Source: Candidatus Bathyarchaeia archaeon (GTDB taxonomy: Archaea; Thermoproteota; Bathyarchaeia; Bathyarchaeales; Bathycorpusculaceae). From it: a DNA stretch of 61,567 nt. The position numbers and the translations under genes were made by a program. The stretch covers positions 1-61,567 of the forward strand of contig JBEKHN010000015.1 in NCBI GenBank assembly GCA_050012255.1, read 5' to 3'. This document shows, one piece after another, positions 23,506-37,314 of the stretch (position 1 is the stretch's first letter; each line of letters starts with the position of its first letter). Under the pieces are notes generated by a model. That model ran no database searches. It worked only from the letters and a program-made list of their open reading frames with translations, and was not told the DNA's origin.

Positions 23506-23579
23506 GCCGCCGTAGCTCAGCTAGGTAGAGCGGCTGGCTGTTAACCAGTCGGTCATAGGTTCAAGTCCTATCGGCGGCG
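23506..23579 (+). tRNA. tRNA-Asn(GTT); contains attL
   Basis: Cloverleaf with CTGGC-T-GTT-AA-CCAG anticodon region. Confidence 0.95.
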
Positions 23580-23880
23580 CCTCATTATCCAAAATAGAAC
23601 TCAAATCAGGGTTTTCTGTTTGTGTATAGTTTTGTGTATTGTTGTGTATAGGTTTGTCTTTCTGTAGAGTTTCTCTGTAGTCTTCTGGTAGTGATTCATA
23701 GCTGCCCAAGTAGCACCATTCTATCTTATTGCTCTCCTTCATGTAGTGCTGGACATAATAATATTCATATGTTGTTCCATGACTCTTCGTTTTCTTGATT
23801 GTCAAGTTACCAATTCTACCACATTTTATGCATTTGACTCTGGGCAAGTTTTTCTTTCCTCCATTAGTTGTGTATAGCAA
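23521..23880 (-). CDS. Integrase N-terminal fragment int(N) with CxxC motif
   Basis: Ends in APPIGLEPMTDWLTA, the same att-encoded peptide that begins 26168..27064. Confidence 0.8.
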   Translation of the reverse strand: MLYTTNGGKKNLPRVKCIKCGRIGNLTIKKTKSHGTTYEYYYVQHYMKESNKIEWCYLGSYESLPEDYRETLQKDKPIHNNTQNYTQTENPDLSSILDNEAPPIGLEPMTDWLTASRST

Positions 23881-23913
23881 TTTATCGGTTTCAGATTTTA
23901 GTGTTGTGTATAG
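23620..23913 (+). repeat. Five copies of TTGTGTATAG (one variant)
   Basis: At 23620, 23632 (TTGTGTATTG), 23642, 23868, 23904. Confidence 0.75.
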
Positions 23914-24155
23914 CGTTCTATCAAAGCTGTTCAGGAAAAAAATAGCAGAGTTTCCTCTTCTCTTTTTTTCTATTCTTGATTTGATAGCATAAGGTCTCTA
24001 AGCTTAGAGATTGAAAATCCTGCTCAAGGAGGGTTCTGCTACAATGTCTAATATTGGACACGCAAAGACATTGCAGGGCTCTACATTCGTCTCTTCTGGT
24101 TTTGCGGAAAAGTTATAGCTGAACCAGTCCCATAAACTTGAGTGGGTGGTCATAA

Positions 24156-24695
24156 TTGCTTGAAGGCAAGAATGTGAATTTGAGGGTTGTGGAGAAGGAA
24201 GACTTGCCTCTGATTGCGGAATGGATGAACAACCCCGAGTTCTGGGGCCAATATTTCTCTCCAATACAGAGAACCAAGACAGACATGGAGAAGACTTTTG
24301 AAAGCAATCCCTTGGAATATAGGCAATTCATTATTGAGAAGAAAGACGGAACCAAAATCGGTGGCATAGCCCACTTCAACATGCTTGCACCCTATGCGAA
24401 AATGCTGGAAATAGGTTATGCACTGCTTTCAAGCGAGAGAGGAAAAGGCTACTGCACCGAAGCTGCAAAGATAATGGTGGATTACTTGTTTCTCTCAAAA
24501 GACATAGCTTGCGTTCAAGCCACGACAGATGTCGGAAATGTTGCTTCACAAAAGGTTCTGGAGAAGGCAGGTTTCCAAAAAGAAGGGATAATGCGAAAAC
24601 GATTTTTCAGCAATGGAGCATGGAGAGACACCGTCCTTTTCAGCATTCTCAGAGAAGAATGGAAAGAACCAAAGATACTGACAAAAACTGCTTAG
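24156..24695 (+). CDS. RimJ/RimL-type GNAT acetyltransferase
   Basis: EIGY, RGKGYCTEA, NVASQKVLEKAGF. Confidence 0.92.
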   Translation: MLEGKNVNLRVVEKEDLPLIAEWMNNPEFWGQYFSPIQRTKTDMEKTFESNPLEYRQFIIEKKDGTKIGGIAHFNMLAPYAKMLEIGYALLSSERGKGYCTEAAKIMVDYLFLSKDIACVQATTDVGNVASQKVLEKAGFQKEGIMRKRFFSNGAWRDTVLFSILREEWKEPKILTKTA

Positions 24696-24810
24696 CACGA
24701 AAACTGACACTAAACCCTCTAACTCAACTGGAAGACACTTCTATTACTCTTTTTAGGCCAGTTTCGTTTTTGCGGAAAAGTTATAGCTGAACCAAACAGG
24801 ATTACGTTGA

Positions 24811-25311
24811 TTGGTGTCAAGAATGCTTGACATTACAGAGATTTCAGCTATTGGTGCAGCAGCGGGCGTACTAGTTGGCGTTGTGCTGACTGTTATTGAA
24901 CTTCGAAATCTGGTCAAGCAAAGGAAATCGGACCTTCTAATGAGACTGCATTTAGCTTTCAGCACAAGAGAAACTTCCGAAGCAGTCCTCAAGTACCTGT
25001 CTGTGGAATACAAGGATTATGATGATTTCGTGGAGAAATACGGCTTACCCTTTGCTGAAGGACCAGTCCAAACAGCCTTCGTTATGATAGGCAATTTCTT
25101 TGAGGGAATTGGCGTTCTTCTGAAAAGAAGACTCGTAGAAATAGAACTTGTCAACGAACTCTTCGCAGTGGAGATGTTCTGGCTAAAAATGAAGCCATTG
25201 ATTGAAGGCATGAGAAAACAGAGTAACAACCCACAGATTCTTGAGTGGTTCGAATACTTGTTCAATGAAACGAAGAAAAGAGAACAGAAGCTTCAACAAT
25301 CAAAAGCCTAA
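24811..25311 (+). CDS. DUF4760-like membrane-anchored protein
   Basis: N-terminal TM; NFFEGIGVLLK and WFEYL motifs. Confidence 0.7.
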   Translation: MVSRMLDITEISAIGAAAGVLVGVVLTVIELRNLVKQRKSDLLMRLHLAFSTRETSEAVLKYLSVEYKDYDDFVEKYGLPFAEGPVQTAFVMIGNFFEGIGVLLKRRLVEIELVNELFAVEMFWLKMKPLIEGMRKQSNNPQILEWFEYLFNETKKREQKLQQSKA

Positions 25312-25473
25312 ACCTTCAAAGATTTCAGTAAGTCCATAGAAGTTTTTCATCATGGTTCTAGCTAGTCTGTGCATAGAATACAGTTAAGACATCAAGTCTA
25401 TTCATGGGATATTCAATTGAAGATTCTTCCACAAGTCATAAGTACCGCATAAAGGAATAACCAATGATGCGCT

Positions 25474-25980
25474 ATGGAGAAACTGAAAACTATCGATTAC
25501 AAAGTTCTGTCGGAGTTGATGAAGGATAGTCGTAGAAGTGACAGACAACTGGCTAAAGCTCTGGGAACTTCTCAGCCCACTGTCTCTAGAAGAAGGGTTA
25601 ATCTTGAAAAGAGCTTTATTGATGGGTATACGGCGATACCAAAATGGGAGAAGATTGGTTTTGAACTTGTTGCGTTCAGCTTTGTAAAACACAAGATTAA
25701 GTATGCCACGCCCGAAGTGAGGGATAAATCCTTCAGGAAGGTGGAAGAGTGGATGATGAAACAACCAAACGTTATCTTAGCCATAGAAGGGCAAGGAATG
25801 GGATGGGATGGCATCTTTGTTTCATTCCACAAGAGCTATTCAGACTTTGCAGAGTTCATGAGAAAGCACAACAGTGAGTTTTCAGACTTATTGATCGATA
25901 CTCAAAGCTTCATTTCAGACATTAACCCAACAACTATTAGAAAACCATTTCACCTGAAATATCTGGCAAATGCAAAGTAG
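25474..25980 (+). CDS. Lrp/AsnC transcriptional regulator
   Basis: DSRRSDRQLAK...SQPTVSRRR...GYTAIP. Confidence 0.9.
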   Translation: MEKLKTIDYKVLSELMKDSRRSDRQLAKALGTSQPTVSRRRVNLEKSFIDGYTAIPKWEKIGFELVAFSFVKHKIKYATPEVRDKSFRKVEEWMMKQPNVILAIEGQGMGWDGIFVSFHKSYSDFAEFMRKHNSEFSDLLIDTQSFISDINPTTIRKPFHLKYLANAK

Positions 25981-26167
25981 TGTGTGCCTATCCAACTGTA
26001 CGAGCTCCCATCAGTCCTTATCCTGCCTCTATTCGGTATTAACATTACCATCAGTCATTGTCTACAGAAAGAAACATGCAAAGATTTCAAGGAGTCTCTA
26101 GAAGTTCTTCACCGTAGTTCTTCTACGCATAAAGAAAAAGAGGAGTGTTTTCGATCTGTTTCGTGTG

Positions 26168-27064
26168 TTAGCTGATTGCTTGTTGCAGTACGGTTAGATT
26201 TGCTTTGTCATAGACTTCTTTCAGTTTCTTAGGACTGTAATCCGTGTAATGTCTTGCCAGAATAGAGTGTGGAGTTCTTCCACAGAAACAGTCGATGTAT
26301 CGGTCTGAAACTCCCAAGTCTGTCATTGCCACACAGAACCATTGCCTTAGCATTTGTGGAGTAATCTTTACACCTGTTTTGTTGTATGCTGTCTGGAACC
26401 ATCTACGAATACTGATTTCTGACGCATTGACATTGAAGCCTATACGCTTGAGATACTCTTCTGTTTCTTTGTTGTGGAAGCTAACGTATGAGTTCTTGGT
26501 AGAGTATTGTTCATGGTTGTTTGGTGTAATGGCTCTAGTCTCTGAATTCATGGTTGCATCGAATATCTCTGATTTGCGTAAGCCTGAAGAACAGTAGAGT
26601 AAGAATATTGCCTTAGCCTTGTCATGTGGAAGTGCATTGAAGAATTGTTTAAGCTCTTCTTTGGACGGTAGCTGTGTAATTAGTTTGAGGTCTATTCTAG
26701 GAAACTTTAGCGTTTGAACCCATTCACCTTTCTTTAGATAGTCTCTGCAAAACACTTTGATTGCACACAGGAACCATCTGTACGTTCTAGGGTTGACGTT
26801 CTTGTTTCTGTATTTGAATAGCCAGTTTCTGATTTTTGTAGCATCTATAGTATTGCCCATTTCTCTAGTATAGCGTGTCAGAGCATTGATGTGCATCTTA
26901 ATAGTCTTGTTTGAACGTTGCAAGTCAACCCGACAGAACATAGCAAAGCTATCTAACACACTATCTGTAATAGTAAAGGCTCTACCAGAAGGGTCTGAGG
27001 GGATACTTCCCTTTATGGCTGTTAACCAGTCGGTCATAGGTTCAAGTCCTGTCGGCGGCGCCAC
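26168..27064 (-). CDS. SSV1/pNOB8-like tyrosine integrase, C-terminal fragment int(C)
   Basis: SGLRKSE, xxLR.WF, CGR, RHY catalytic motifs; first 16 codons are the att site. Confidence 0.9.
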   Translation of the reverse strand: MAPPTGLEPMTDWLTAIKGSIPSDPSGRAFTITDSVLDSFAMFCRVDLQRSNKTIKMHINALTRYTREMGNTIDATKIRNWLFKYRNKNVNPRTYRWFLCAIKVFCRDYLKKGEWVQTLKFPRIDLKLITQLPSKEELKQFFNALPHDKAKAIFLLYCSSGLRKSEIFDATMNSETRAITPNNHEQYSTKNSYVSFHNKETEEYLKRIGFNVNASEISIRRWFQTAYNKTGVKITPQMLRQWFCVAMTDLGVSDRYIDCFCGRTPHSILARHYTDYSPKKLKEVYDKANLTVLQQAIS

Positions 27065-30483: not shown

Positions 30484-30954
30484 CTAATACCAAAACTGCT
30501 GCAACACATCCTTCTTCTCCACGATGTAGCCACAGTAGTGGCACTTCAATGACAGCGGTTCCTCGCATTCAACGTAGAACCTGGCCTTAACAGGCTCATT
30601 GCTGTTGCTTATGCAAGCTGGGTTAGCACACTTGATGATGTTGTCAATAACGTTTGGCAGCTTCACCTCTTCCTTTTTTACAACTTTGTAGTCGCGAATG
30701 ATGTTGATGCTGGCATGCGGCGCGATCAAAGCTATTTTGTGAACCTCCTGCGGCTTCAACTCCCTGCCTTCTATCTTGACGATGTCCTTCGTCTTTAGCC
30801 GTTTACTCGGAACATTAATGGCGATCGTGATAGGGCCTTTATCGTTTCCTGTTATGCCTAGAATCTTGACAACGTCCAACGCGTGTCCCCTCGTTATGTG
30901 ATCGATAACTGTGCCATCCTTGATCTTTGAAACACGTAGCTCAGTCTCGGTCAT
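30484..30954 (-). CDS. pyrI: Aspartate carbamoyltransferase regulatory chain
   Basis: GTVIDHI, KDIVKIE, CANPACI, CHYC. Confidence 0.96.
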   Translation of the reverse strand: MTETELRVSKIKDGTVIDHITRGHALDVVKILGITGNDKGPITIAINVPSKRLKTKDIVKIEGRELKPQEVHKIALIAPHASINIIRDYKVVKKEEVKLPNVIDNIIKCANPACISNSNEPVKARFYVECEEPLSLKCHYCGYIVEKKDVLQQFWY

Positions 30955-31147
30955 TCGAAATCCCCTTCCAAGAAAACGGTAATACCACAACCGCAGATAA
31001 AAGACTTTAATCTCTGGCAGAGTTAGACTTTTTCTTTTGTGAATAGAGAAGAAACCGCCAAGTTCTTTACGGGTTTTCTGAAGTCGCAAGATGAAGTGGG
31101 TGTGTCGATTTGTGCTGTGAACGATTTTCAAGGCTTATTAGGAATGG

Positions 31148-31639
31148 TTGAAGATTGATTCAGGGGATGATGTGGCAAAGAAAAAAAGTTGGCCTGAAAA
31201 GCTCGAGGACAGTAAGGGTTTGCCAAGAGTTGAAAAGATCCCTGCCAAGATGAACAAGAGGTGGGGCGCAGGCACACTGGTCATCCCGGCACCGAGGGAA
31301 GTGGATGAAATCATGAGGAAGGTGCCCGAAGGGAGAGTCGTCACGGTAAATGAAATTCGCGAAGCGTTAGCGAGGAAACACAATGCTTCAATCGGCTGTC
31401 CCATCATGACGGGCATCTTTGCTCGCATTGCAGCTGGCGCTGCAGAAGAACAAACCGTAAAGGGTAAAGAAATTACGCCTTACTGGCGCACTTTGAAAGT
31501 TGGCGGAGTCATAAACGAGAAGTATCCAGAAGGAGTTGAAGGACAGTGAAGGCTTCTGGAGAAAGAGGGACACAAGGTGATTCGGAAAGGCAAGAAATAC
31601 GTCGTTGTAGACTTCGAAAAATCTCTAGCAAGAATATAG
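31148..31639 (+). pseudogene. MGMT/Atl-like alkyl-DNA binding protein with in-frame TGA at 31547
   Basis: VPEGRVVT, PYWR; frame continues RLLEKEGHKV after the stop. Confidence 0.7.
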
Positions 31640-31716: not shown

Positions 31717-32664
<948 letters not shown>

Positions 32665-32687: not shown

Positions 32688-34910
32688 TCACGTGCCCATG
32701 AACCTGTCAAAGAAGGCTAACGTTCCCACTGCTCCGCATGAAGGGCACTTGTGCAGTAGGCCAAACCAGCTTTTCTTGCAACTGAAACAATAGGTGAGTT
32801 TGCGGTCATAAGTGAAGACGCCTACGTTGTGGCTTTCGGTGAGCTGTTTGGTAATTGTCATAAGCTCTTCAGGTTCGTGCTTGCTCTCGTCAAGGTCGAC
32901 GACCGTTAGGCTTCCACTAACATGCGCTTCGGCCAGCTTGTCTTCAAACGTTAATGATTCTTCTGTGACCCTTCCGCCGGTAATCGGTATTCGGTTGACG
33001 GTGGGGTAGAAAGGTTTCTCTCTCACGCCTGAAAACTTCACCTTCGCAACTCCATACCTTTCGATGTCCATCTGGGCCAGTCTCTCAGAAGCTTCGCGAT
33101 TGGGAAGCATCGCAGCGGACAAGCGTTTTCCGCGCCTTCTGCCGATCTTCTGAACGTAGATCGAAACTTCTTTTGCGATTTCCTCGGAGAAAGCCAATGT
33201 CTTTTCGTCGCCAACACTTTTTTCACAGAACATCTCAGCACCCTGTTTCAACCCCGCCAAGTTTATTATGCGAGAACAGCTTTCAAGTCTGAAGTACTGG
33301 TCACCATTGCCGCCTTGCATGATAAACGGCAGCAGGTTCTTGCCGCGATGCGTCAGGGTTCGATGCTTGATTTCTAGGGCCCTGTTTGCCATCTCAACCC
33401 TTTCCTTTAGAATTTCAAGGAATTTTGTCTGGTCTCTACACGATTCATGCGCGACCCGCGGAACATTGATCGTTACAACTCCGAGACACCCTGTACGCAA
33501 CGTGTCAGTTTCCCAGTCACCGTTCAAATCTGCGTCGAGCACAAACCCTGATGAAGAAAAAACAGAGTGCTTCCTCTCCTTCTTGAGCGCGTTGGCAAAG
33601 TATAGAAAGCCTCTTTCTGAAGCCAAGCTGTGAGCTTTCATCAGCAACGCTTTTGCTCTCTCATTCGAGGTGGTTTCTGCGCGTATTTTCAGGATAAGCT
33701 TTGGGGTCGTCAGCGGCTTACAGCCACCTTCTTCAGCGAAGACCTCAAGCAAGAGAGATGCCAAAAGCTGGACCTGTTCGGTGAAATCTGAGTAGGTGCC
33801 GACGTGCTTTCCATTAGGTCCCACCGCTAGACTCTCGGCCAAGAAGTCTGGAACAGTCAGCTCCAGGCCTAGAGAAACATGCGTGTGCTGAGCCAAGCTT
33901 GCAGTGAACAATCGCAAAGCTTCTTTGACCTTGGAGGGTTCAGCATCCTTGGCAAATGGGGCTAGGAACACGTTGAAGTAGTCGAGTGTCTGCATGGTGT
34001 CGACTTCTTTAGCGCTGTGCAGAAGAACATTGAAAGTCAAAGAAAGCGCGGCCTGCAAGTTCTGAGGTGCTGATTGGCTCTGTTGCAGAGGGTTTATGCT
34101 CTCTAAGTCTAAACCGTTTCTTAAAAAGAATCGGAGGTCATGCATTATTTCGGTGGGCTTCAGGATCCATGAGCTTAAGCCGTTGATGTGTAAGGAACCT
34201 GACAAGTGAGCGTCTGAAATGTCTCTTGGGAGAACGTTCAGCAGCGTGTACTCCTTGAAGACTGTTTCACCGGCTGATTCCTGCGCTGGGACCGTCTCGT
34301 GAAGGGTTCTGTTCCTCGATTCTAAAAGACTGGTCACGTCGTGAACAGGTATCCCCAACCGTGTGAGCTTGTGTCGATACTCTTCCAATCCTTTCTCTAT
34401 CAAGATCGCGTTCACGACCTCTCTCACGAGTGGAGCAGTCAAATACTTCGTTCTTGCCCGAATCAGCTGTTTCTCTGCTTCCTTGGCCACCCTCTGCGCA
34501 AGCTCCGCAGGCATCCTCGCTTCTCTCGTCAACGAGCTCGCAATCTTGTTAGCATCAAACTCTTCAAGTGCAAGACGGCTCGTGCGAACAAGCGCACTTC
34601 TCGGCTTGAAAGCTTTCTTGTCAATCTTGTCCGCAACATCAATGACCATCTTCCCCAGTTCGGTTAAGCAGTACTTCCTCGCCTCAACATTCGCTTCAAT
34701 CAAGTCCGCCTTAAGCAAGAATTTCAGGTGGTACGCAAACCTTCCAGCATCCCTGCTGGGGTTCATCTTGAGAGAACCCATCAGTTCGGTGTAAGAAAGC
34801 GGGCCCTCGTCAAAAAGCAGGTTCAAAATCTGCAGCCTCAAAGGTGAGGAGACAGCCTTCAGTATCCTGACCCCGCGGACCCTTTGGGGAACAGACAACC
34901 CTCTCTCCAA
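32688..34910 (-). CDS. ArsR-HTH + ATP-cone + NrdD-like fusion, apparently catalytically inactive
   Basis: N-terminal wHTH (RLQILNLL, YHLKFL), ATP-cone (EEFDANKI), NrdD-like body and CxxC/CxxC, no RITGY. Confidence 0.8.
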   Translation of the reverse strand: MERGLSVPQRVRGVRILKAVSSPLRLQILNLLFDEGPLSYTELMGSLKMNPSRDAGRFAYHLKFLLKADLIEANVEARKYCLTELGKMVIDVADKIDKKAFKPRSALVRTSRLALEEFDANKIASSLTREARMPAELAQRVAKEAEKQLIRARTKYLTAPLVREVVNAILIEKGLEEYRHKLTRLGIPVHDVTSLLESRNRTLHETVPAQESAGETVFKEYTLLNVLPRDISDAHLSGSLHINGLSSWILKPTEIMHDLRFFLRNGLDLESINPLQQSQSAPQNLQAALSLTFNVLLHSAKEVDTMQTLDYFNVFLAPFAKDAEPSKVKEALRLFTASLAQHTHVSLGLELTVPDFLAESLAVGPNGKHVGTYSDFTEQVQLLASLLLEVFAEEGGCKPLTTPKLILKIRAETTSNERAKALLMKAHSLASERGFLYFANALKKERKHSVFSSSGFVLDADLNGDWETDTLRTGCLGVVTINVPRVAHESCRDQTKFLEILKERVEMANRALEIKHRTLTHRGKNLLPFIMQGGNGDQYFRLESCSRIINLAGLKQGAEMFCEKSVGDEKTLAFSEEIAKEVSIYVQKIGRRRGKRLSAAMLPNREASERLAQMDIERYGVAKVKFSGVREKPFYPTVNRIPITGGRVTEESLTFEDKLAEAHVSGSLTVVDLDESKHEPEELMTITKQLTESHNVGVFTYDRKLTYCFSCKKSWFGLLHKCPSCGAVGTLAFFDRFMGT

Positions 34911-35005
34911 CCCTCGAAACCGTAAGCGTATTATTTAGGAGTAAGGGTTTAAAGGCGTTGAGGAACACTTATTTTTCTCGCCTGAAATGAGAGTTTCAGC
35001 TTCAA

Positions 35006-35083
35006 GGGGCTGTCGGCTAGCTTGGTCTAGGCTATGAGCCTCGGGCGCTCGTGACCCCGGTTCAAATCCGGGCAGCCCCACCA
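35006..35083 (+). tRNA. tRNA-Pro(CGG), CCA encoded
   Basis: Cloverleaf with TGAGC-CT-CGG-GC-GCTCG anticodon arm. Confidence 0.93.
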
Positions 35084-35329: not shown

Positions 35330-35770
35330 CTATTTGTTTCTGCTGCGGCAAGTCTTGCAAACGCCATAAACATCCAAGCGTTGCCCCGTTCGCGTGAATT
35401 CTGCTTTGGCCGCCACTCTCTCAACGATTTCTCGAGCAGCACTATCATCGAAATCTTGAATATTGCCACACCGCATGCAGATCAGGTTAATGTGAGGTTC
35501 CACATAAGAATCGAATCTTGCCTGACTTTCTGGCAAATCCAGTTCTTGTACTAGGCCGTGTTCCGTCAGAATCTGAAGTGTCTTGTAGACTGTTGCAAGA
35601 CTGACAGTTGGATGAACCTTCCTTACTTCATGGTAGACTCTTTGCGCGCTCGGATGGTCTCGGCTATGGAGGGCAAATCGACAAATAGCTATCCTTTGCG
35701 TAGTGGCCTTGTATCCTTTCTTCCGGAGAGTTTCGATTATCAATGCGTCTGATTTCTGAGAGCGACTCAT
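35330..35770 (-). CDS. Fur/PerR family regulator
   Basis: TQRIAI, HPSA, SLATVYKTL, CxxC twice; divergent from catalase. Confidence 0.93.
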   Translation of the reverse strand: MSRSQKSDALIIETLRKKGYKATTQRIAICRFALHSRDHPSAQRVYHEVRKVHPTVSLATVYKTLQILTEHGLVQELDLPESQARFDSYVEPHINLICMRCGNIQDFDDSAAREIVERVAAKAEFTRTGQRLDVYGVCKTCRSRNK

Positions 35771-35775
35771 ACCTT

Positions 35776-35789
35776 TTATTAGATAATAA
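35776..35789. promoter_or_regulatory. Candidate PerR/Fur box
   Basis: TTATTA-GA-TAATAA dyad in the divergent intergenic region. Confidence 0.5.
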
Positions 35790-35865
35790 CAAATCTTAAA
35801 TAAACCTTTAGCTCTTTGACAGCCTAAGACGTTAAAAAACAACAGAAAAGGGGAGGTGAAAAGTT

Positions 35866-37314
35866 ATGAAAGAGAAACATATCACGACGAATCAGGGTGT
35901 TCCTGTCTCTGACAACCAGAATTCGCTCACTGCAGGCGAGCGCGGTCCTGTGCTGCTGCAGGATGTGCATTTGATTGAGAAGCTTGCCCACTTTGACCGT
36001 GAGCGTATTCCCGAGCGTGTGGTGCACGCGAAAGGTGCCGGCGCGCATGGCTACTTCCAAGTGTACAAGAGCATGGCAAGATACACGTTTGCAAAATTCC
36101 TTCAAGACTCGAAGAAGAAGACGCCTGTGTTCGTCCGCTTCTCTACGGTTGTCGGTGCAAGAGGATCCGCAGATACGGCTCGCGATCCCAGAGGTTTTGC
36201 TGTGAAGTTTTACACTGAGGACGGTAACTACGACTTGGTCGGCAATAACTTGCCAGTCTTCTTCATCCGAGACGCCGTTAAATTCCCTGACATGGTGCAC
36301 GCCTTCAAGCCTGCGCCTGACACTGGATATCCCACAAGTTCGTCGGCAAACAGTCGCTTCTGGGACTTCATTTCGCTGACTCCTGAATCCACACACATGA
36401 TCACTTGGCTCTTCTCAGATCGAGGCACAGTCAAGAGCTACAGAAGAATGGAAGGATTTGGCGTCAATACCTACAAGTGGGTAAACGCCGAGGGCAAAGC
36501 AGTCTACGTCAAGTACCATTGGAAGCCAAAAGCAGGAATAGAAACAATAGACCGCCACGAGTCTACTCGCCTGGCTGGTGAGGACCCTGACATTGCTACT
36601 CGCGACTTGTACAAAACCATTGCTTCAGGAAAGATAGTCGAATACGAATTGTGCGTTCAGATCATGGAAATCGCGGACGAGTTGAAGCAGGACTTCGACC
36701 CGCTTGACGCCACAAAGACATGGCCGGAAGACAAGTTCCCCCTCACATCCGTGGGCAAGATGGTGTTGAACCGCAACCCCGAAAACTTCTTCGCCGAAAC
36801 AGAGCAAGCAGCTTTCAGCCCAGGCTCTGTTGTTCCAGGCATCGACTTCTCCGCTGACAAGCTCCTGCAGGGTAGAACATTCTCCTACGCAGACACCCAA
36901 AGGCACAGATTGGGCGCTAACTATCTGCAACTTCCAATCAATCGGCCACAGGCATCTGTCAATAACAATCAACGCGACGGTGCCATGCAGTATGCGCCCT
37001 ACGGCGGAGGAACAGTCAACTACGAACCCAACACGCTAGCAGATGGAATGCCGCATGAAGCTCCGGCCACTGGCACGACTCACGAGCATCTTGAAGCAGA
37101 CATCGCGCGCCAGAAAATCAGTTTGACAAACGACTTCAAGCAAGCAGGCGAACGCTACAGTTCACTAGGCAAAATGGATCAGGACCACCTGGTTGATAAC
37201 ATCGTGGATTCGCTGAGTCACGCAGAGAAGCCCATTCAGAAACGGATGGTCGAGAATCTTACTCAAGCTGATCCAGAGTTTGGCAAACGAGTGGCAAAAG
37301 GCCTCAAACTCTAG
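35866..37314 (+). CDS. kat: Monofunctional heme catalase
   Basis: FDRERIPERVVHAKG, RDPRGFA, QGRTFSYADTQ; GGAGGTGA SD. Confidence 0.97.
   Translation: MKEKHITTNQGVPVSDNQNSLTAGERGPVLLQDVHLIEKLAHFDRERIPERVVHAKGAGAHGYFQVYKSMARYTFAKFLQDSKKKTPVFVRFSTVVGARGSADTARDPRGFAVKFYTEDGNYDLVGNNLPVFFIRDAVKFPDMVHAFKPAPDTGYPTSSSANSRFWDFISLTPESTHMITWLFSDRGTVKSYRRMEGFGVNTYKWVNAEGKAVYVKYHWKPKAGIETIDRHESTRLAGEDPDIATRDLYKTIASGKIVEYELCVQIMEIADELKQDFDPLDATKTWPEDKFPLTSVGKMVLNRNPENFFAETEQAAFSPGSVVPGIDFSADKLLQGRTFSYADTQRHRLGANYLQLPINRPQASVNNNQRDGAMQYAPYGGGTVNYEPNTLADGMPHEAPATGTTHEHLEADIARQKISLTNDFKQAGERYSSLGKMDQDHLVDNIVDSLSHAEKPIQKRMVENLTQADPEFGKRVAKGLKL

Follow-up and report, generated by a model that had tools for sequence, protein, structure and literature searches.

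Class III ribonucleotide reductase (RNR), NrdD (PF13597, TIGR02487), is known from the solved structures of the T4, T. maritima, P. copri, and S. thermophilus enzymes. It is built from a barrel and a C-terminal Zn ribbon, preceded in most NrdDs by an N-terminal ATP-cone. A cone of this family recurs in NrdR (TIGR00244), a protein of about 150 aa that has no barrel and binds DNA through an N-terminal Zn ribbon. NrdR genes often lie beside RNR genes, and the presumed job of the protein is to couple RNR transcription to the nucleotide pool; the available part of PMC9110341 describes it as "rare in archaea". The ArsR/SmtB regulators (PF01022; e.g., HlyU and ArsR) carry a winged helix-turn-helix (wHTH). 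Moreover, enzyme folds are in some cases kept for a regulatory or structural role, as in yeast Rnr4 and PyrR, which represent inactive paralogues and enzyme-derived regulators. Here, we describe a gene in a 61,567-nt stretch of DNA from a Candidatus Bathyarchaeia archaeon (contig JBEKHN010000015.1 of assembly GCA_050012255.1; this whole stretch is referred to as the window). In the encoded protein an ArsR-type wHTH and an ATP-cone are fused to an entire NrdD that has lost its catalytic residues (referred to below as dead-NrdD). We consider it probable, on the basis of sequence comparisons, that this descendant of NrdD is a nucleotide-sensing transcription factor for nucleotide-supply genes.

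Dead-NrdD resembles each of these systems in part. With NrdR it shares the combination of an ATP-cone and a DNA-binding domain, the frequent placement of the gene beside RNR genes, and the presumed job, but it is 736 aa long and joins a winged helix to a whole dead NrdD. The two are not the same thing, since the genome has a true NrdR elsewhere. With NrdD it shares the homologous barrel, the C-terminal Zn ribbon, and the N-terminal ATP-cone. Unlike NrdD, it has an extra winged helix and no adjacent nrdG partner, it lacks the thiyl Cys, the first active-site Cys, the NxN flap, the active-site Glu, and the R-x-x-G-Y motif with its tail, and its HxHD motif is degenerate. The winged helix is shared with the ArsR/SmtB regulators, but is here fused to about 640 further residues.

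The gene lies in a single open reading frame (ORF) on the minus strand (32688..34910), 740 codons long from a TTG and free of internal stops, as stated in an earlier reading made from the letters of the DNA (the sequence-only reading). Translation probably begins at the second TTG (34898), which gives 736 aa. This start is favored because the identical database record has 736 residues, because the ESM Atlas sequence begins at residue 5, and because a close relative has an ATG at the same codon with a GGAGG-like stretch ahead of it. Residue numbers follow the 740-aa numbering.

The sequence-only reading had also proposed an ArsR-like wHTH, an ATP-cone, an NrdD-like barrel, and a C-terminal Zn site, and all four were recovered by Pfam, AlphaFold2 (AF2) modeling, Foldseek, and alignment. 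In Pfam, the winged helix (residues 17-91) matches DUF7347 (29.8 bits; cut-off 27.6) and HTH_5 (28.2 bits; cut-off 22). The gathering score of the ArsR/SmtB winged-helix family PF01022 is exceeded, and the score for the metalloregulator subfamily model stays below its cut-off (31.6 vs 55). For the N-terminal 90 residues, matches to solved structures are weak (HlyU and ArsR, E 0.045-0.06), and no metal-sensing site was seen, none having been searched for. Residues G56, F58, Y60, H61, and L62 of the recognition helix are invariant or nearly so in the family alignment. The ATP-cone (PF03477, residues 114-178) scores 26.8 bits, just above the cut-off of 25.8, and scores 33-36 bits in relatives. 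The NRDD domain (PF13597, residues 213-738) reaches 211.4 bits, compared with 652 bits for the working NrdD of the same genome.

The ESM Atlas has no structure model of the protein. The AF2 model, built with 55 family sequences, has a mean predicted local distance difference test score (pLDDT) of 87.6 and a predicted template-modeling score (pTM) of 0.77; pLDDT falls below 50 only in two linkers and the first 7 residues. The model comprises a winged helix (helices 23-35, 40-46, 51-67, and 84-100; strands 71-74 and 79-82), an ATP-cone, and a barrel. In the cone, strands 107-109 and 115-117 and the helices within 120-182 form the β-hairpin plus four-helix fold expected for PF03477. When the model was compared with the PDB using Foldseek, class III RNRs (S. 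thermophilus, P. copri, T. maritima, and phage T4) took ranks 1-36, with E-values from 2.7e-26 to 6.8e-18, template-modeling scores of 0.58-0.76 on the target, and 14-18% identity; other glycyl-radical enzymes followed far behind. Complex prediction with two copies of the N-terminal 199 aa gave a score of 0.07 (mark 0.42), which counts neither for nor against pairing.

What sets the protein apart from NrdD is its catalytic residues. The motifs, as defined in the accessible portion of PMC11226230 (HxHD triphosphate site, NxN flap, and others), were compared pairwise with the genome's own working NrdD and across 60 family members and 10 working NrdDs. The first active-site Cys, present in 10/10 working NrdDs, is a Glu here (KPTEIMHD); in the family, the column holds E23, S10, T8, and N5, with Cys outside the four commonest residues. 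The thiyl loop reads FSSSGF and has no Cys, where the genome's own NrdD has SMCCRL. The thiyl-Cys column is again Cys in all 10 working NrdDs and most often S17, D10, T7, and N6 in the family. Hence, both replacements noticed in the sequence-only reading hold in alignment, and both losses are family-wide. The NxN flap is a gap in 58 of the 60 members. The HxHD motif reads H-I-N-G here; in the family, the first His is kept in 46/60, while the second His and the Asp are mostly lost. The active-site Glu, found in every working NrdD, is absent here and present in 18/60 members.

The glycyl-radical loop had likewise been reported as lost, and this holds in part. In alignment with the genome's own NrdD, the Gly of the terminal RFMGT does fall on the radical Gly of RVVGY, a trait confined to the close subfamily. 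The other elements of the loop are gone: the Tyr that follows the radical Gly in 10/10 working NrdDs is replaced by Thr (in the family, Tyr is outside the four commonest residues), the stop codon comes one residue past the Gly, and nothing follows. The radical Gly itself occurs in 10/10 working NrdDs compared with 17/60 family members. These same features rule out the terminal MGT as a working Gly loop. In a 50%-identity library, Cys at both sites together with R-x-x-G-Y was found in only 7 of 99 representatives of 600-830 aa; these 99 were drawn from 150 listed, the other 51 being dropped for length. Four of five tested features that define NrdD are absent, and the fifth, the fold with a C-terminal Cys4 Zn ribbon, is present. 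Judged by these residues, the protein would be no enzyme of the class III RNR kind.

Could the protein still be an enzyme, reducing ribonucleotides or catalyzing another reaction by means of different residues? The barrel is full length, the Asn of the N-L-P-R motif is kept in 60/60 members together with the R-L-A and Y motifs, the Zn-ribbon residues C708, C711, C722, and C725 are invariant in 55/55, and the terminal Gly lines up with the radical Gly in the close subfamily. Set against this, of the residue classes on which glycyl/thiyl radical chemistry and substrate-triphosphate binding depend, each is absent or variable throughout the family, the NrdD equivalog TIGR02487 scores 235 bits with a cut-off of 326.35, the barrel is the fastest-evolving part, and the family occurs in genomes with no other NRDD match. 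An enzymatic role is therefore very improbable. Shorter forms of about 536-625 aa (e.g., L141:6200-7963; families f45 and f40) keep the winged helix and the ATP-cone and lack the C-terminal Zn ribbon, which suggests that the barrel can be trimmed further. In a tree of 34 dead and 20 working barrels, made by a quick search with a midpoint root and a limited sample of working enzymes, one branch splits the two groups (SH-aLRT 100).

The family is large. A word-indexed search listed 120 clusters (64-100% identity). Each has an NRDD match, and in most the winged helix and ATP-cone are found too; their record names are "anaerobic ribonucleoside-triphosphate reductase" or "ArsR family transcriptional regulator", from Bathyarchaeia. 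An exhaustive search gave 338 representatives at E <= 1e-30, many of which align from residue 9-16 with 26-46% identity. When species-representative genomes were scanned with a pattern, 578 of the 600 matches listed encode a relative, and nearly all of the best 80 loci are from Bathyarchaeia.

That the gene is under selection, as the sequence-only reading had supposed from the intact ORF, is borne out by comparison of DNA pairs. Against the closest DNA fetched (L204, 76% identical), the NG86 method gives an ω of 0.095 overall, with the synonymous rate (dS, 1.59) near saturation; by part, ω is 0.027 for the wHTH, 0.032 for the ATP-cone, and 0.119 for the barrel. In six further DNA pairs, with dS saturated in all six, the nonsynonymous rate (dN) rises from the wHTH through the ATP-cone to the barrel (0.04-0.095 in the wHTH vs 0.25-0.45 in the barrel), making the wHTH the slowest-evolving part within the family. 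Over 41 distant members, identity averages 0.60 for the ATP-cone, 0.43 for the wHTH, and about 0.30 for the barrel. The strongest selection falls on the winged helix and the ATP-cone.

These data also refute the reading that the gene is a decaying nrdD duplicate, a pseudogene that gained its N-terminal extension by chance. The lost catalytic residues would fit decay, as would the in-frame stops seen in a few relatives (TAA in G032:C4:69465-71680 and G081:C1:1470744-1472978; TGA in G410:C6:17622-18398 and G422:C1:1756573-1757430), which could reflect decay, assembly error, or recoding. However, neither this ORF nor its counterparts in about 100 sampled Bathyarchaeia genomes, at 34-65% identity, are interrupted, ω is low, the contigs of four other DNA runs carry no indels in the gene, and relatives are encoded at nearly all of the pattern matches listed. 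Of 113 substitutions, the 40 best supported comprise 22 synonymous and 18 nonsynonymous changes (pN/pS about 0.25). No RNA run containing the locus was listed.

The conserved ATP-cone is unusual in one respect. Where canonical cones have V-x-K-R, it reads V108-R109-T110-S111, and column profiles show T110 in 49/55 and S111 in 53/55 family members. The basic K-R pair after the first strand is thus absent here and in nearly all members, and NrdR-type cones likewise have K/R where this cone has T/S. In the studied cone of P. copri NrdD, the basic pair that binds the triphosphate is Lys7/Arg8, according to the accessible portion of PMC11226230. In contrast, Y178, R179, and R184 of the last helix, at positions which the same portion of that source gives as contacting nucleotides in studied cones, are kept.

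As regards distribution, the N-terminal 203 aa (wHTH and ATP-cone) are matched in 212 of 301 sampled genomes of the phylum, so the check for a wider occurrence in the TACK archaea, proposed with the sequence-only reading, finds the family widespread. The match is universal in some families (f32, 43/43; f45, 18/18; f40, 11/11) and absent from others (f41, 0/20; f47, 0/10; f49, 0/10). Identical proteins are on record for Candidatus Nitrosotenuis cloacae, Candidatus Methanosuratincola, Culexarchaeum/Verstraetearchaeota, and metagenome-assembled genomes of Nitrososphaerota. Feature matches in the ESM Atlas, which are leads only, include Asgard and DPANN clusters.

Gene neighborhoods were compared at 101 Bathyarchaeia loci, i.e., the full-length winged-helix form fetched from 99 of the 140 genomes of the class with an NrdD-type match, plus the window. 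A working nrdD follows directly downstream on the same strand at 27 of the 101 loci, sometimes after a glutaredoxin gene (grx), and a convergent pyrB lies within 7 kb downstream at 61 (within 250 bp at 36). Both occur together at 16 loci. Of the 76 loci for which 3.5 kb or more of downstream DNA is available, nrdD or pyrB is present in 61, and neither in 15. Class-wide, the layout is dead-NrdD gene → [grx, nrdD, (nrdG)] ← pyrB, with pyrI → beyond. In the family of the present organism (f1; 16 loci including its own), pyrB stands tail-to-tail with the dead-NrdD gene in 16/16 with no nrdD between, and the upstream neighbors vary freely.

In the window, 23 nt separate the stop codons of pyrB and the dead-NrdD gene, and pyrI lies a further 1.5 kb off on the minus strand. 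The proximity to pyrB/pyrI pointed out in the sequence-only reading is accordingly conserved for pyrB, but it is no operon: pyrB is not co-transcribed with the dead-NrdD gene, because it is convergent. A role as an operon partner of pyrB/pyrI was ruled out on this ground and because pyrB has a conserved promoter of its own. The pyrB adjacency is real and old, and the simplest reading of it in f1 is a remnant of the wider layout after loss of nrdD.

In the aerobic ammonia oxidizers (family f32), the same protein family stands beside a different RNR. A class I/II-type RNR large subunit was found in 45 of 46 f32 genomes; in one of them it has 889 aa with ATP-cone, all-α, and barrel domains. In 41 of those 45, the dead-NrdD gene and the class II-type RNR are within about 3 kb, with the former upstream on the same strand in 40 and divergent in one (G168); in the remaining four (G291, G426, G427, and G434), the two genes are on different contigs of fragmented assemblies. 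A protein identical to that of one f32 genome is recorded under Candidatus Nitrosotenuis cloacae. Taken together with the Bathyarchaeia loci, the same family hence adjoins RNR genes of two different classes.

These genomes also bear on the suggestion that dead-NrdD works at the protein level, forming a heteromer with NrdD or class II RNR through the barrel dimer interface or ATP-cone contacts. It would then tune activity or supply an ATP-cone in trans, with the winged helix serving localization or protein contacts. Inactive paralogues that pair with active RNR subunits exist, e.g., yeast Rnr4. Further in its favor, the NrdDs directly downstream in L053, L054, and L055 have no Pfam ATP-cone, the barrel is retained over its full length, Zn ribbon included, and evolves under purifying selection (see ω above), and ATP-cones drive RNR oligomerization according to the accessible portion of PMC11226230. 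However, an NRDD-like match was found in 45/46 f32 genomes with a best score of 91.7 bits, and all these matches fall inside the dead ORF of about 700 aa. No working NrdD was found in the 46 genomes; consequently, partnership with NrdD cannot be the general role, and the idea of a regulatory partner of an active NrdD, put forward in the sequence-only reading, is not borne out in that general form. The neighboring class II-type RNR in f32 has an ATP-cone of its own, the slowest-evolving part of dead-NrdD is the winged helix, which fits sequence-specific DNA contact, and in the present genome the dead-NrdD gene is on a different contig from both RNRs. We regard a protein-level partner as quite unlikely.

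The working RNRs of the present genome were located elsewhere, as the sequence-only reading had advised looking for. The genes nrdR, nrdD (710 aa), and nrdG lie in a row on contig C12, and a class II-type RNR with an ATP-cone is encoded on contig C4. No nrdG was found near the dead-NrdD gene, in line with the earlier observation that no activase is nearby. The NrdR encoded on C12 (TIGR00244, 163.1 bits) is the only match in the genome. In the class, an NrdD-type match is present in 140 of 151 sampled genomes, while NrdR was found in 20 of the 151 and only in f1 (16/16 with own) and f18 (4/27); a second f1 sample gave 19/20. Above its cut-off, NrdR was found in 0/46 f32 genomes. NrdR was not found in any of the families that contribute the 27 loci with nrdD directly downstream, a correspondence that amounts to one or a few phylogenetic events, not 27.

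Upstream of the f1 nrdR operon (L166-L185; own copy on C12 near 17821), NrdR-box-like palindromes directly follow the TATA box: ACGCTA, 4 nt, TAGCGT, plus a second box, AACACTA. Such paired boxes were not found upstream of the dead-NrdD gene. The NrdD of this operon sits on a long separate branch of the tree. From these sequence features, nrdR-nrdD-nrdG in f1 looks to be an archaeal NrdR circuit for class III that exists alongside dead-NrdD.

Candidate control elements differ between the genes concerned. Upstream of the dead-NrdD gene, CAACGCCTTTAAACCC is the local form of a TCTAATTTTTTAAAC-like element that is conserved across Bathyarchaeia about 30-50 nt before the start and may be just a B recognition element/TATA box or also an operator. 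TTTAAAC occurs within 160 nt upstream of the dead-NrdD gene at 46/91 loci compared with 26/507 other genes, and upstream of pyrB, pyrI, and nrdD in 2/59, 1/32, and 2/26 cases, respectively. An inverted repeat, CTGAAA/TTTCAG, lies further upstream of CAACGCCTTTAAACCC; enumeration of palindromic dyads upstream of the gene returned only the A/T-rich promoter element. A separate conserved element stands in the pyrB promoter and bears no relation to that of the dead-NrdD gene.

The RNR genes themselves show a different signature. In f32 (L146-L165), the TATA box of the class II RNR is preceded, at a distance of about 40 nt, by a conserved inverted repeat resembling GGTGTCAAnAAAATTGAnC, and in several Bathyarchaeia families similar TGTCAAT...TGA boxes precede nrdD or grx (L053, L055, L062, L065, L066, L071, L087, and L088). 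The two sets are a candidate for a shared RNR box. The pattern TGTCAA.{2,6}TGA was found upstream of the RNR gene that follows the dead-NrdD gene at 7/19 Bathyarchaeia and 7/20 f32 loci, compared with 0/93 dead-NrdD upstream regions and 1/246 controls. The TGTCAA-type element was not found before the RNR or pyr genes of the present genome, where GTGTCAA...TTGA-type patterns gave 22 and 15 matches, with no RNR or pyr gene behind any of them; the site that looks best (C2:185757) stands before a small ORF that is ribbon-helix-helix-like by eye.

Several of these observations weigh against a regulator of RNR genes that reads adenine nucleotides. In f1, the gene adjoins no RNR gene in 16/16 loci; the organism's own nrdD has its own NrdR and NrdR-like boxes; and a query search found no class II RNR in two f1 genomes, G114 and G038, that are 96-100% complete and keep the gene. 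No motif was found in common between the dead-NrdD promoter and the promoters of the nrdR operon, class II RNR, or pyrB, so the motif search upstream of nrd and pyr genes that was proposed with the sequence-only reading had a negative outcome in the genome at hand. The TGTCAA.{2,6}TGA pattern is post hoc and comes from few related families, and the neighbor counts are not independent events, because gene order is inherited. Finally, binding of ATP or dATP is not assured, given that the triphosphate-binding Lys/Arg are replaced by Thr/Ser.

The altered cone, the uncoupling from RNR genes in f1 with the convergent pyrB kept at all 16 loci, the convergent pyrB at most of the Bathyarchaeia loci, and the absence of a detected RNR-promoter motif in the organism's own genome would also fit a DNA-binding regulator that has ceased to respond to adenine nucleotides or to the needs of RNR. 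The altered cone or the fossil barrel would bind another ligand or none, and in this lineage the protein would control something else, for instance pyrimidine synthesis, or have a general chromatin role. Yet the ATP-cone is the best conserved part and keeps the three residues of its last helix, the linkage across the family is to RNR genes of two classes, the promoter elements of pyrB and dead-NrdD are unrelated, and relatives with the arrangement dead-NrdD gene → nrdD ← pyrB (L052, L135, and 14 more) account for the pyrB adjacency as a leftover of nrdD loss. This alternative seems to us unlikely.

A nucleotide-sensing transcription factor is favored because the radical machinery is lost across the whole family, because selection is strongest on the winged helix and ATP-cone, because the gene lies beside RNR genes of two classes in different lineages, and because the protein is present in aerobic ammonia oxidizers in which neither NrdD nor NrdR was found. 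The proposal in the sequence-only reading that an RNR scaffold has been converted into a nucleotide-sensing transcription factor, analogous to NrdR, thereby gains support, with DNA and nucleotide binding as its presumptive parts. In the model we propose, the NrdD barrel would be retained as a scaffold, probably dimerizing, and the ATP-cone would read an adenine-nucleotide signal, perhaps with altered specificity. The signal would alter the oligomeric state or geometry such that the winged helices bind or release operator DNA at nucleotide-supply genes; we infer both this regulon and the sign of regulation. Gene order suggests that the targets in most lineages would be the neighboring RNR genes. 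In f1, nrdD would have passed to the nrdR-nrdD-nrdG operon with its NrdR-like boxes, and dead-NrdD would be retained for other targets, candidates being its own promoter, class II RNR, and pyrimidine genes.

A broader version of this model can be offered tentatively, as a possibility that we do not expect to hold in full. Dead-NrdD might be an ancestral master regulator of deoxynucleoside triphosphate (dNTP) supply in Thermoproteota (TACK), perhaps beyond. As a pseudoenzyme turned transcription factor, it would sense the nucleotide pool with a re-tuned ATP-cone, possibly also with the fossil allosteric sites of the RNR barrel, and would act at a common TGTCAA-type box in front of RNR genes, of whichever class the cell relies on. 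In f1, a separately acquired nrdR-nrdD-nrdG set would have taken over the class III genes, and the old regulator would survive there under strong selection because it controls further genes.

Full-text literature searches, for which subscription-only papers and supplements were outside the scope, found no description of an NrdD that is fused to a winged helix or catalytically dead. Searches by term in PMC9531940 and PMC3019208 gave nothing relevant, and the available parts of PMC11226230 and PMC9110341 do not mention such a protein. Most likely, then, the gene represents a switch of a kind not yet described in print. Control of RNR genes in archaea is largely open, and a widespread regulator derived from a dead RNR would, if true, fill this gap and provide a clear case of a whole enzyme fossilized into the sensor or scaffold of a transcription factor. 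In addition, public records label the family "anaerobic ribonucleoside-triphosphate reductase" even in aerobic ammonia oxidizers, a name that invents an anaerobic dNTP pathway in metabolic reconstructions. In the lineage of the window, the protein occurs together with a true NrdR and is no longer coupled to nrdD, which makes this lineage a natural experiment on other targets. The features of the locus are collected in Table 1.

Table 1. Coordinates of the dead-NrdD gene, its predicted domains, and adjoining features in the window.
Feature	Position	Strand	Basis or remark
wHTH/ATP-cone/dead-NrdD gene (probable start)	32688..34898; longest ORF to 34910	-	ORF, database records, relative's ATG
ArsR-type winged helix-turn-helix, residues 17-91	34638..34862	-	Pfam, family alignment, AF2
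ATP-cone, residues 105-190, divergent but highly conserved	34341..34598	-	Pfam, column profiles
NrdD-derived α/β barrel, residues 213-700, without radical chemistry	32811..34274	-	Pfam, alignments, AF2/Foldseek
Zn ribbon and truncated tail, which ends RFMGT where the glycyl-radical loop would be	32691..32810	-	alignments
Putative promoter element CAACGCCTTTAAACCC, palindromic TTTAAA at 34948-34953	34944..34965	-	about 45 nt upstream of start
pyrB, convergent tail-to-tail neighbor, outside the transcription unit	31717..32664	+	neighborhood comparison

A gene for tRNA-Pro(CGG) (35006-35083, plus strand) begins about 110 nt upstream of the start of the dead-NrdD gene, between it and a Fur-family gene. 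By eye, several close relatives (OWN, L038, L039, L044, and L050) have a tRNA-like stretch at the same place. The Fur-family regulator gene and a gene for a 482-aa catalase, together spanning 35330-37314, are divergent; the same genome also retains a class III RNR, which is sensitive to oxygen. On the other side, a 133-aa ORF with no Pfam match (31148-31549) lies between pyrI and pyrB, and a 69%-identical copy is found in L052, 2-3 kb from pyrI and pyrB. The longest ORF of pyrI itself (30484-31131; 215 aa from a TTG) is too long: its PyrI domains begin only near residue 60 (MTETEL...), and a start there gives a gene of about 155 aa with its 5′ end at 30951.

Further off in the window, an island of low GC content (23506-27064; 0.415 at 24-26 kb) starts at a gene for tRNA-Asn (23506-23581) and carries a GNAT acetyltransferase, an AsnC-type HTH protein, and an archaeal phage-type integrase (26168-27064). 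The ORFs at both of its ends translate the same tRNA-like stretch, which suggests attachment-site repeats, and the island probably represents a small integrated element. A near-perfect palindrome, TGTCAAG-4 nt-CTTGACA (24811-24835), marks the start of one of its ORFs and is probably unrelated to the RNR boxes.

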